Below, piece by piece: positions 18,001 to 21,000 of a stretch of 64,000 nucleotides of DNA (its first letter is position 1; each line of letters begins with the position of its first letter). The position numbers were made by a program. Origin of the DNA: Escherichia coli (lineage in GTDB: Bacteria > Pseudomonadota > Gammaproteobacteria > Enterobacterales > Enterobacteriaceae); assembly GCF_003334385.1 (NCBI RefSeq), contig NZ_QOWN01000002.1; one strand, 5' to 3'.

Positions 18001-21000
18001 ACACATACGCCTGCAGCAGGGTGATAATGCCGATAACGCTGGCAAAAATCAGACTGTGCTTCACGGTGTAGCGGAACAGTTCAGATTCTCGGCCCACCAT
18101 GCCCGTCGCGGCGCAGGCCACGGCGATAGATTGCGGGGAGATCATCTTGCCAGTTACGCCGCCGCTGGTGTTTGCTGCCACCAGCAGGGTGTCAGAGACG
18201 TTGATTTGCTGCGCCGTGGTCGATTGCAGTGAACCAAACAGGGCGTTAGAGGAGGTGTCCGAGCCGGTAAGGAATACGCCCAGCCAGCCGAGAAACGGTG
18301 AGAAGAACGGGAACATCACGCCTGTACCTGCCAGTACCAGCGCCAGCGTGGTGGACATGCCAGAATAGTTGGTGACGAAGGCGAACGCCAGCACCATGCC
18401 AATCGACAGTATCGGCCACTTCAAGCTAATTAGCGTTTCGGCAAAGACGCCAATACCTTTCTTGATCCCCACACCGAGGATGAAGATAGAGATAATCGCC
18501 GCAATAAAAATAGCGGTGCCGCCAGCCGAGAGGGGGTCGAATTTAAACACCGCATCCATTGGCGTTGGTTGGGCGACAATGGGTGCCGCTTTCAACACTT
18601 GTTGATGCAAATGAGGGATCTGGAAATTAATCACCAGTGAATAAAACGCGCCGCCCGGAGCAAATAACGCTTTAAACGGCTTCATGGTCCAGATGGTGAC
18701 CAGCACCGTTAAGATTAAAAACGGTGACCACGCTCGAATGATTTGCCCCAGACTATATTCTGAAGGCACGGGACCGCCAGAAGATGGCTTATTTACCACC
18801 ATCGCACCTGCGGATTGTCCCATGCTGATTGCCGTTTCGGTATTTTTCGGCCGCCAGACTTTAAGGAATAAAGCGAGTGAGACGATACTCACCAGCGCCG
18901 AAGTAATATCCGGCAGTTCCGGACCAATATAGTTAGAGGTAAAGAACTGAGTGACAGCGAAGCTTCCCCCAGCAACCAGCGCCGCTGGCCACGTCTCTTT
19001 CACCCCTTTCCAGCCGTCCATCATTGCTACCAGCCAGAACGGCACAAGAACCGACAGGAACGGTAACTGACGTCCCGCCATTGCGCCAATGTGGAACGGA
19101 TCGATTCCCGTTACCTGACCGGCGACCAGAATCGGCACGCCCAACGCACCAAACGCCACCGGCGCAGTATTGGCAATCAGACACAGCCCCGCCGCGTATA
19201 ACGGTTTGAAGCCCAGGCCCACCAGCAGCGCACCGGTAATCGCCACCGGCGCACCAAAGCCAGCCGCTCCTTCCAGCAACGCACCAAAGGAGAAACCAAT
19301 CAGTAACACCTGCAAACGCTGATCGTCGGTGATGGAGATAACCGAGCTGCGGATAATATCGAACTGCCCGCTGGCAACGGTTAATTTATACAGGAACACC
19401 GCCGCGACAATAATCCACGCTATTGGCCATAATCCATAAATAAAGCCATAGCCCGCAGCAGCAAATGCCATATCAATCGGCATTTTAAAGGCGAATATTG
19501 CAATCAGGATAGATAATATAAGGGTTATTGCTCCAGCGACATGTCCTTTCAGACGTAATACCGCGAGTGCAACGAAGAAGAATATTATCGGGATCAGGGC
19601 GACCAGAGCGGATAGCCCCAGTCCTCCCATCGGCATATACATTTGGGTCCAGGTAACCATATTGTTCAGTCTCTTATTATCTTTATATGCTTGATATACT
19701 TAAGGTTGTAATAAGCAAAAGAGGACTGAACTGTAAAATATAGGCGTTATACTTTACAGCAACAGTACGCCGCTAACGCAATTGCTACCTCTGGCATAAC
19801 AAGTATATCGGGTAAGGGTTTCTGTTCCGCACACGCAGACGCAGAGTATCGTTAAGATGTCCATATTGTTGTTTTAGGCCCGCTAGTAATGCGCTACGGG
19901 TATTTAATATTGTTAAACCCTGATAATCGCTCCGGTTATTTCCGGGATAAATGTACTACCGCAGTTACTATCATAGCCCCGACAATAAAACTTGCCGGGG
20001 CTTTTTTGACGCTATTAATGACTTTCTTTTTCGCGTAAACGCCAGGCGTGTAATAACGGTTCGGTATAGCCGTTTGGCTGTTTCACGCCGAGGAAGATTA
20101 AATCGCTGGCAGCTTTAAAAGCACACGAGTTAGCGAAATTCCCCGCCATCGGACGATAAGCCGGATCGCCAGCGTTTTGCTGATCAACCACTTTCGCCAT
20201 ATTCTCCAGCGACGCCTGCACCTGTTCTTTGGTCAGAATACCGTGACGTAACCAGTTGGCGATATGCTGGCTGGAGATACGCAGCGTTGCGCGGTCTTCC
20301 ATCAACGCCACATTGTGAATATCCGGCACTTTTGAACAACCAATCCCCTGCTCCACCCAGCGCACCACGTACCCCAGAATCCCCTGCACGTTGTTATCCA
20401 GCTCTTGTTGGATCTCTTGCGCCGACCAGTTAGCGTTTTCAGCAACCGGAATAGTCAGCAGATCGTCCAGCAGCGGTTCAAATTCAGCATTGAACTCGGT
20501 CTGGGCAATGTTGGTTTGTACGCTCTGTACGTTGGTTTGGTGGTAGTGCAGCGCATGGAGCGTAGCAGCGGTTGGTGACGGAACCCAGGCTGTGTTTGCC
20601 CCGGCACGCAGTTGGTCGCCCTTCTGGCTGTACATGTCTGCCATCAGGTCCGGCATTGCCCACATGCCTTTACCAATTTGCGCTTTACCGCGCAGCCCAC
20701 AGAACAGACCGGAAAGCACGTTATTACGCTCGTAGGCTTTGATCCAAGGCGTCGATTTCATCTGATTTTTACGCAGCATCGGGCCAGCTTCCATCACCGA
20801 ATGCATTTCATCGCCGGTACGGTCGAGGAAACCGGTATTGATGAACGCCACGCGGTTGCGCGCCTGAGCGATACAGCTACGCAAGTTCAGCGAGGTCCGA
20901 CGTTCTTCATCCATAATGCCCATTTTCAGGGTATTCGGTGCCATACCGAGCATTGTCTCAATGCGGGTAAACAGTTTGTTGGCGAACGCCACTTCCTGCG

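Follow-up and report, generated by a model that had tools for sequence, protein, structure and literature searches.

Unequal expression of genes within an operon can be set by intercistronic stem-loops, as is the case with the malE–malF REP element and with the Rhodobacter puf operon. Precise RNA 3′ ends have also been described directly after stable stem-loops with no U-rich tail (Dar and Sorek 2018, PMC6061677), and RNase III has been found to cleave preferentially in intergenic regions within transcripts (Altuvia 2018), in a study that does not name the glc genes in its main text. The spacer between glcB and glcA of Escherichia coli, considered here, is itself an already known locus, as databases list in it the candidate sRNA C0719. 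This RNA was reportedly first described by Tjaden et al. in 2002, by transcript detection on oligonucleotide arrays. The corresponding Rfam family, to which no function has been assigned, is based on sequence alone.

The DNA analyzed was a stretch of 64,000 nucleotides of E. coli (contig NZ_QOWN01000002.1, assembly GCF_003334385.1), called here the window, which is K-12 sequence, 100% identical to MG1655; NC_000913.3 coordinates are obtained by adding 3,101,619 to those of the window, with the strand unchanged. The features of interest are summarized in Table 1. A first-pass annotation had pointed out that the glcB–glcA spacer is unusually long within an otherwise tightly packed operon, and had noticed a GC hairpin with a plus-strand T-run near the glcB stop. 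All of this was borne out: ORF analysis and annotation tables gave a spacer of 354 bp, which is exceptional within the operon because the other junctions do not exceed 21 bp (at one of them the genes overlap by 1 nt, and at the rest they are 10, 4 and 21 nt apart), and the stem and the TTTTTT run were found at the positions given in Table 1. The spacer comprises the 3′ region of glcB and the 5′ leader of glcA.

Table 1. Coordinates of the features of the glcB–glcA region, in window numbering
Feature	Position	Strand	Basis or remark
Terminator-like hairpin after the glcA stop, operon end	17940-17970	-	12 pairs, 7-nt loop, tail CATTTACATT
glcA	17978-19660	-	ORF and annotation tables
glcB–glcA intercistronic spacer, untranslated, of the glcDEFGBA mRNA	19661-20014 (354 nt)	-	ORF and annotation tables
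Most conserved spacer block, adjoining glcA	19661-19835	none	E. albertii and E. coli comparison
glcA Shine-Dalgarno-like AAGAGA, 9 nt before the ATG	19670-19675	-	Read from the sequence
Extended imperfect hairpin of the glcA leader, predicted, ~46 bp	19685-19808	-	Folding
Apex of the extended hairpin, AU-rich 12-bp stem with 5-nt loop	19731-19759	-	Inverted repeat and folding
Rfam RF00117 (C0719 candidate sRNA) match	19739-19960	+	298.2 bits, E 1.5e-78, model positions 1-222
Term-seq RNA 3′ end (MG1655 3121590)	19971	-	4 nt past the base of hairpin 1
Hairpin 1, GC-rich 11-bp stem-loop	19975-20002	-	Starts 12 nt past the glcB stop codon
T6 run after hairpin 1	20002-20007	+	Sequence; equals A6 before the stem on the operon strand
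glcB	20015-22186	-	ORF and annotation tables

Small ORFs were rejected as protein genes: the only one on the sense strand (36 aa, 19754-19864, minus strand) is not conserved, and in Citrobacter its ATG is changed to ACG and a 23-nt insertion is present. A repeated element (REP/BIME, ERIC/IRU or MITE-like) or a mobile element was also discarded, the spacer sequence being single-copy. In near and distant search modes, it occurred in a median of one and a maximum of two places per E. coli genome, and its matches in a plasmid collection were only to chromosome-sized or E. coli records.

Comparison between genomes indicates that the spacer is strongly constrained. In E. albertii it is 94.9% identical to that of E. 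coli (about 5% of the positions differ), as compared to 66–72% identity (about 32% differing) at the four-fold sites of the flanking genes; a control region formed by non-coding sequence and the 3′ part of a gene downstream of glcA is only 80% identical. The block adjoining glcA differs from E. albertii at 2 of 175 nt (1%; Fisher p = 3e-22 versus four-fold sites), it contains three polymorphic sites among nine diverse E. coli (Fisher p = 4e-10 versus four-fold sites), and its portion 19685-19835 is at least 99% identical in 4169 of 4540 E. coli genomes. Among GTDB species representatives, E. albertii was the sole close GlcB relative outside E. coli, and a metagenome pattern scan for further lineages found nothing; the Citrobacter and Klebsiella/Raoultella loci were obtained through a GlcA search and contig look-ups. 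The orthologous spacers of these genera measure 397–415 bp, and also within Klebsiella/Raoultella, and between Klebsiella and Citrobacter, the spacer is less divergent than the four-fold sites.

Hairpin 1 is formed by arms of 11 nt (19975-19985 and 19992-20002), 91% complementary and separated by a 6-nt loop; the first T of the T6 run (20002) is base-paired inside the stem. As RNA of the minus (operon) strand it folds with −21.1 kcal/mol (z −4.7; 0 of 200 shuffles as good), and as RNA of the plus strand with −15.2 kcal/mol (z −3.6; 1 of 200). When set against all the 43-nt segments of the window, the first value is in the top 0.36% and the second only in the top 4%. A strict terminator scan made no call at this place; it missed the hairpin because an A·C mismatch interrupts the plus-strand stem. 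Hairpin 1 is present in E. albertii, Citrobacter and Klebsiella/Raoultella, being kept in four genera with one compensatory change (a G-C to C-G swap). Six of the seven one-sided changes in the stem give G·U, so that pairing is maintained only on the operon strand; this excess could nevertheless reflect mutation bias without selection, because five of the seven are C to U on that strand. An A5-6 tract adjoining the stem is retained in every lineage, while the sequence between the tract and the glcB stop varies. Taking together its conservation and the RNA 3′ end mapped nearby, hairpin 1 is more than a product of chance.

The mapped end comes from published Term-seq of late-growth cultures. In Adams et al. 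2021 (PMC7815308; Supplementary file 1, sheet 'LB 2.0'), it averages 47,630 reads and is classed as 'primary' for glcB and 'antisense' to C0719; its position was verified against the 61-nt context sequence of that table. Uniform read-through of the spacer, which would have left no internal transcript ends, is therefore not what is found, because an operon-strand 3′ end lies just past hairpin 1. The same tables contain no glcA 3′ end in any condition, despite the terminator-like hairpin past glcA. The end at 19971 is probably not produced by intrinsic termination, because no U-tract follows hairpin 1 on the operon strand. A rut-like composition after hairpin 1 was also considered and found weak: the C/G ratio downstream is at most 1.67, only modestly raised, with no marked C-rich, G-poor signature. 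A published bicyclomycin table, obtained in LB at OD 0.5, when the operon is probably off, has no entry at the spacer.

With slightly better than even confidence, we interpret the spacer as a conserved, structured, untranslated part of the glc mRNA that acts on the operon strand, where hairpin 1 marks and protects the 3′ end of the glcDEFGB message with the effect of reducing glcA. Rho or an endonuclease would stop the polymerase, or cut the transcript, somewhere within the 354-nt untranslated stretch; 3′ exonucleases would then trim the RNA back to the stable stem of hairpin 1, which would shield the glcDEFGB message. Only part of the transcripts would thus include glcA, and the permease would therefore be kept below the soluble enzymes, yet still under the control of the glcD promoter. 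What is listed as C0719 RNA would then be a legacy annotation, or else an antisense by-product of minor importance.

The second working part of the interpreted mRNA structure would be the conserved extended hairpin of 100–125 nt that is predicted next to the glcA ribosome-binding site, on its upstream side; there the mRNA may be processed, for instance by RNase III, or the hairpin may set the stability or translation of the glcA mRNA. In the predicted fold, 24 nt separate its base from the glcA start codon. In E. coli it gives −38.8 kcal/mol (z −4.2) on the operon strand versus −34.5 kcal/mol on the plus strand, and its apex stem −16.7 kcal/mol (z −6.5) versus −10.5 kcal/mol (z −2.5). One unbranched hairpin is predicted at the same place in Klebsiella/Raoultella (z −4.3 to −5.7) and, weakly, in Citrobacter (z −1.3), with only 55% sequence identity to E. 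coli; the predicted pairs are 46 in E. coli and 32–41 in Citrobacter and Klebsiella, and in all eight sequences folded it is the operon strand that gives the more stable structure. The whole spacer follows the same trend, with operon-strand and plus-strand z values of −2.9 and −1.9 in E. coli, −3.9 and −3.4 in Citrobacter, and −7.4 and −3.2 in Klebsiella. RNAalifold, applied to the whole spacer, found many kept pairs with a slightly unfavourable covariation term (+2.32); because of this, and of the poor alignment between genera, the folds of individual sequences were preferred. The extended hairpin comes from folds predicted for three or four independent lineages.

The AGAGA of the Shine-Dalgarno-like site of glcA is kept in the three genera. 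Masking of this site by an upstream anti-Shine-Dalgarno sequence (19719-19730 pairing with 19665-19675) was considered and found unsupported: the predicted unpaired probability of the site is 0.21, compared to 0.43 ± 0.17 for shuffled versions of the upstream sequence, 7–12% of which are equally low, and no pairing of the E. coli type is predicted in Citrobacter and Klebsiella.

A more ambitious proposal, which we make tentatively and hold to be rather less than an even chance, is that the spacer is a cis-acting domain of the glc mRNA throughout Escherichia, Citrobacter and Klebsiella/Raoultella, that uncouples the synthesis of the permease from that of the enzymes at the post-transcriptional level and is not primarily an sRNA gene. 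Its parts would be a 3′-protective hairpin and the extended hairpin abutting the glcA ribosome-binding site. Its route would be either processing, for example by RNase III, or the binding of a protein or a metabolite, with C0719 as a strand mis-assignment or a by-product.

It is unlikely, in our view, that C0719 is a genuine plus-strand RNA of about 270–300 nt, with its start at ~19707–19739 and its end at the hairpin and T-run (~20007), acting either in trans as an sRNA or in cis by antisense pairing with the glcA leader. Such an RNA could coexist with the mRNA structure. The antisense element suggested by the first-pass annotation does coincide with Rfam C0719, which sits between glcA (yghK) and glcB on the opposite strand to both, and corresponds to 3119380-3119601 (+) in older MG1655 coordinates (Rau 2015). 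The RF00117 match is full length and far above the gathering score of 50 bits, and a match of 273 bits occurs in E. albertii; however, the model has no match in the orthologous spacers of Klebsiella or Citrobacter, the limits of the match do not coincide with those of the conserved block, and the current RefSeq NC_000913.3 record of MG1655 annotates no feature in the spacer. On the plus strand, hairpin 1 followed by T5-6 looks like a canonical intrinsic terminator in all the lineages examined, and the conserved A-tract, which is the T-run of the other strand, is more easily accounted for by such a terminator than by any role known for it on the operon strand. Nevertheless, Term-seq in LB 0.4, LB 2.0 and M63 recorded no plus-strand 3′ end in MG1655 3121200-3121699, as against one end on the opposite strand; the missing end could be explained by low expression. 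In published RNA-seq, plus-strand counts of C0719 climb in the transition and stationary phases, but they are very low (~0.3–3 normalised units, with a sum of 45.7 compared to 4,657 for RygC in the same table), and the rise could mirror expression of the glc operon if strand specificity was imperfect. A possible promoter, the extended −10-like TGATATACT at 19692-19700 (+), lies within the invariant block, but it is not conserved in Klebsiella and Citrobacter, and the best promoter-like scores of the plus strand, 7.8 and 6.5 (the latter for the TGATATACT extended −10), compare with a median best score of 6.7 per stretch of equal size. The RNA of plus-strand 19739-20006 folds like shuffled sequence (z −0.6). 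As to function, a transposon insertion at the C0719 site has been reported to reduce group II intron retrohoming, while screening for biofilm and motility showed no phenotype upon overexpression of C0719. The support for C0719 as a real, discrete transcript is thin.

A separate promoter and operator of glcA, with the conserved block as a DNA-level regulatory region and hairpin 1 as the end of a glcDEFGB operon, is quite improbable. In length, the spacer resembles a typical promoter region, the conserved block is directly upstream of glcA, and the 3′ end maps after glcB; besides, the response of glcA to LldR overexpression is weaker than that of glcD. On the other hand, glcDEFGBA is regarded in the literature as a single transcription unit, and glcA is co-regulated with glcD-B, the expression of which it tracks in a pdhR mutant. 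The internal glcA promoter, one of the options of the first-pass annotation, received no support: no sigma-70-like site rises above background on either strand (on the operon strand, a best score of 6.8 versus a median best of 6.7 per equal-size stretch of the window), the candidate hexamers differ between genera, and the Kim 2012 supplement, which is a weak test, has no start site in the spacer. An operator motif common to the spacer and the glcC-glcD control region was rejected as well, as they share no 10-mer, nor any 12-mer with one mismatch, and an imperfect palindrome of 100–125 bp with a G·U strand bias would be atypical for an operator. Lastly, it is very improbable that hairpin 1 serves the operon strand as a classical Rho-independent terminator or attenuator, for although its GC-rich stem (11 bp, −21.1 kcal/mol) just past the stop codon is strong and has a mapped 3′ end close by, that end is only 4 nt from the stem, and in no lineage is the operon-strand tail rich in U (AUGAUAGU in E. 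coli, UAUUGCAG in Citrobacter, ACUGCAGA in Klebsiella). The attenuator that had been suggested earlier can thus be kept in a loose sense, as there is an operon-strand 3′ end after the hairpin and no listed glcA end, but not as a classical intrinsic one, because the U-tract is absent.

In comparison with known systems, hairpin 1 resembles an intrinsic terminator on the plus strand, where a GC-rich stem precedes T6, and differs from it by the lack of a U-tract on the operon strand and, on the plus strand, by the A·C mismatch and by the fact that no in vivo 3′ end is reported. With respect to Rfam C0719, sequence, location and strand assignment are identical, and the coordinates agree with the RNA-seq studies; in contrast, the conservation pattern, the folding asymmetry and the sole mapped 3′ end favour the opposite strand, and the legacy sRNA annotation may be better explained as a structure of the sense-strand mRNA. 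Like the hairpins processed by RNase III in rpsO-pnp and in the rnc leader, the extended hairpin is a predicted long imperfect duplex (32–46 pairs) within a transcript. By prediction, it has the duplex length of an RNase III substrate (about two helical turns or more), and the likeness is one of shape only. Hairpin 1 shares with the protective 3′ stem-loops of Dar and Sorek (2018) the absence of a U-rich tail and a 3′ end just downstream. Its likeness to their Rho-dependent or processed class consists of its structure and the position of that end, whereas it is located inside an operon instead of at its end, and no clear rut-like composition follows it.

The practical value of these observations is modest, and no new kind of mechanism is implied; strains engineered for the production or use of glycolate could be affected by the removal or retention of the spacer, because they rely on glcDEFGBA. 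Unlike the malE–malF REP element, hairpin 1 belongs to no family of repeated elements, being single-copy per genome even in a low-stringency search. What hairpin 1 would share with malE–malF and puf is its arrangement, that is, a hairpin after a highly expressed cistron followed by the gene of a membrane protein that is probably needed less. If the favoured interpretation is true, the spacer would provide a simple case of an operon in which a membrane transporter is produced in smaller amounts than the soluble enzymes encoded with it.

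The window comes from E. coli K-12: the region matches MG1655 at 100% identity (NC_000913.3 coordinate = window coordinate + 3,101,619, strand unchanged), and the coordinates of its features are collected in the table below. The glcB-glcA spacer is exceptional within the minus-strand operon glcDEFGBA because at the remaining junctions neighbouring genes in one case overlap by 1 nt and in the others lie 10, 4 and 21 nt apart, so gene coordinates and junction lengths bear out the long spacer in an otherwise tight operon described in the first-pass annotation. The MG1655 RefSeq record (NC_000913.3) contains no feature annotated within the spacer and no ncRNA entry for the candidate sRNA C0719; the same record misspells the product of the neighbour gene yghJ as 'putative mayloidogenic protein'.

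Features of the glcB-glcA region and predicted extended hairpins of the glcA leader
Feature	Position	Strand	Size or structure	Fold energy (kcal/mol)	z	Remark
glcB	20015-22186	-				
glcA	17978-19660	-				
glcB-glcA spacer	19661-20014		354 bp			
Terminator-like hairpin	17940-17970	-	12 bp			directly 3′ of glcA stop codon
Hairpin 1	19975-19985 and 19992-20002 (arms)		6-nt loop			
TTTTTT run	20002-20007	+				directly 3′ of hairpin 1 on + strand
Extended hairpin, E. coli	19685-19808		124 nt	-38.8	-4.2	
Extended hairpin, Klebsiella/Raoultella			102 nt	-39.6 to -45.8	-4.3 to -5.7	
Extended hairpin, Citrobacter			95 nt	-28.8	-1.3	

Transcript mapping across the spacer is partly covered by published Term-seq data (Adams et al. 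2021, PMC7815308), in which an internal transcript end is present: an RNA 3′ end at MG1655 position 3121590, minus strand (window 19971), with 47,630 reads on average in LB at OD 2.0, classed as 'primary' for glcB and 'antisense' to C0719. According to the printed context sequence, this end lies 4 nt beyond the base of hairpin 1 on the operon strand (...GGGGCU-AUGA). In the three conditions of the same tables, no + strand 3′ end is listed for the spacer, nor is any 3′ end of glcA, despite the terminator-like hairpin that follows this gene.

The hairpin near the glcB stop and its plus-strand T-run, both noted in the first-pass annotation, were confirmed by the stem arms and by the fold z-scores. 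The RNA fold of hairpin 1 reached -21.1 kcal/mol (z -4.7) on the - strand and -15.2 kcal/mol (z -3.6) on the + strand, which rank in the top 0.36% and top 4%, respectively, among the 43-nt windows of the whole 64 kb; the gap between the two energies comes from one stem position, which pairs as G.U on the - strand but is mismatched (A.C) on the + strand. Hairpin 1 was retained in every enteric lineage compared, with one pair swapped from G-C to C-G in Citrobacter. Six of the seven one-sided stem changes led to G.U on the operon strand (A.C on the other) and one did the opposite, although mutation bias could contribute to this excess, since five of the seven are operon-strand C-to-U changes. The stem of a Raoultella sp. 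locus (L100) contains three operon-strand wobbles and folds at -21.1 kcal/mol on that strand versus -15.5 on the other. An A5-6 tract directly 5′ of hairpin 1 on the operon strand was also retained in every lineage, despite differing neighbouring sequence. As this tract is the T-run of the + strand, hairpin 1 has the canonical form of an intrinsic terminator for + strand transcription only; we know of no operon-strand role for the tract.

Concerning the conservation of the spacer, E. albertii was the sole close GlcB relative beyond E. coli among the GTDB species representatives, the next ones (Pseudomonas and others) reaching at most 67%. Its 353-bp spacer is 94.9% identical to that of E. coli, while identity between the two species was 72% (glcB) and 66% (glcA) at four-fold degenerate sites, and 80% in the region 3′ of glcA. 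The 175-nt block adjoining glcA (19661-19835) showed only 2 differences between both species; across nine diverse E. coli it had 3 polymorphic positions, the glcB-proximal half 10 (divergence p = 3e-22, polymorphism p = 4e-10, Fisher tests of the block against four-fold sites). Within the block, positions 19685-19835 were at least 99% identical in 4169 of the 4540 E. coli genomes having them, and occurred as one copy per genome even in a low-stringency search.

Citrobacter freundii and Klebsiella/Raoultella contigs, reached via GlcA orthologues of 88-89% identity, likewise contain a glcB-glcA gap, of 397-415 bp. Spacer divergence was 4.1% versus 15.6% at four-fold sites within Klebsiella/Raoultella, and 21% versus 43% between Klebsiella and Citrobacter. 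Low divergence and the long spacers of other genera therefore indicate a functional non-coding region rather than filler: the spacer element is functional and conserved. In three Pseudomonas loci (L016, L028, L058), glcA directly follows glcB, with spacers of 111-322 bp that start with strong stem-loops.

The operon-strand RNA that separates a conserved CTTACC motif from the glcA ribosome-binding site was predicted to form a single unbranched extended hairpin in three genera, even though the E. coli sequence is only 55% identical to those of Klebsiella/Raoultella and Citrobacter. This shape was obtained in just 5-10% of shuffled sequences. The operon strand was the more stable one in 8/8 sequences, and likewise in whole-spacer folds.

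E. coli 2013C-3513 (NZ_CP027555.1) lacks glcA together with the 116 spacer nt nearest to it, its match to K-12 (comparison 19777-20014) ending at window 19777 beside a traT pseudogene, cptA and IS elements; the traT junction also occurs in other genomes (e.g., match H68). Published work describes the C0719 locus as absent through loss from some E. coli and Shigella lineages, and this type of deletion is probably that loss. Swine strain PEC408 (NZ_CM168008.1) keeps beside glcB just 47 nt of the spacer, its glcB-proximal end (19968-20014, with hairpin 1); the expected place of glcA is occupied by an IS5-like ISKpn26 element and by zorB2 and zorE of a type II Zorya anti-phage system. Strain 23CRST047 (NZ_AP045820.1) matched window 19161-20514 in two pieces separated by an annotated IS1 transposase, which places an IS1 insertion within or close to the glcA/spacer region. 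In Klebsiella/Raoultella (L093, L094, L097-L101) a malic-enzyme gene in the same orientation lies about 105 bp 3′ of glcA, which may make the operon longer there; L100 and L101 have a predicted 66-aa ORF within the spacer on the opposite strand (1127-1327). A permease 89% identical to GlcA (L096, ENA contig NODE_8868) lies 3′ of a DUF2810 gene, an lldP-type context, and not after glcB; its upstream region has no similarity to the glc spacer, and the contig gave a weak, sub-threshold Rfam STnc380 match at 420-506 (-). Identity to the Pseudomonas proteins is 78-80% for the E. coli permease GlcA and 64-67% for GlcB. Together with the Pseudomonas gene order and with E. albertii as the sole close GlcB relative among GTDB species representatives, these values suggest that the enteric glc operon is patchily distributed, possibly by horizontal acquisition.

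The antisense element proposed in the first-pass annotation finds a counterpart in a full-length match to Rfam RF00117 (C0719) at 19739-19960 (+), 298 bits. That a genuine antisense C0719 RNA is made, with hairpin 1 and the T-run as its terminator, seems rather unlikely, and it may coexist with a role in the mRNA. The terminator form kept on the + strand in every lineage speaks for it; however, the + strand of the C0719 span folds indistinguishably from shuffled sequence (z -0.6), the conserved block and the C0719 limits do not coincide, the RF00117 model finds no match in Klebsiella or Citrobacter spacers, and the Term-seq ends give this strand no support. Published C0719 read counts are low and increase in transition and stationary phase; overexpression had no effect on biofilm or motility, and a transposon insertion at the site reduced group II intron retrohoming. 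Its gene identifier (G0-8912) is still found in EcoCyc-derived tables.

An internal glcA promoter, also proposed earlier, is disfavoured: no promoter-like site on either spacer strand scored above window background, and the literature describes glcA as co-regulated with glcD-B and glcDEFGBA as one unit, which fits partial read-through better than a separate promoter. Masking of the glcA Shine-Dalgarno, a 36-aa ORF in the spacer and an operator common to the spacer and the glcC-glcD region did not hold up, and a repeated element was rejected because the sequence is single-copy.

The preferred reading is thus an element of the operon mRNA. The RNA 3′ end that terminates the glcB message lies just past a stable stem without a U-tract, and would arise by termination through Rho, or by an endonuclease cut, within the long untranslated stretch, followed by trimming back to the stem; the composition 3′ of hairpin 1 is only weakly rut-like. 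Termination or cleavage inside the spacer would leave fewer transcripts carrying glcA than glcDEFGB, and the extended hairpin adjoining the glcA start may be a processing, stability or translation element. The evidence that places the conserved structure, and with it the extended hairpin, on the strand of the mRNA comes from predictions in a few lineages and had no counterpart in the accessible literature. The locus itself is on record both as Rfam C0719 and through the published glcB 3′ end, and the mechanisms invoked are familiar ones. Transcripts trimmed back to a stem after Rho-dependent termination or cleavage form a class that Dar and Sorek described (2018, PMC6061677).
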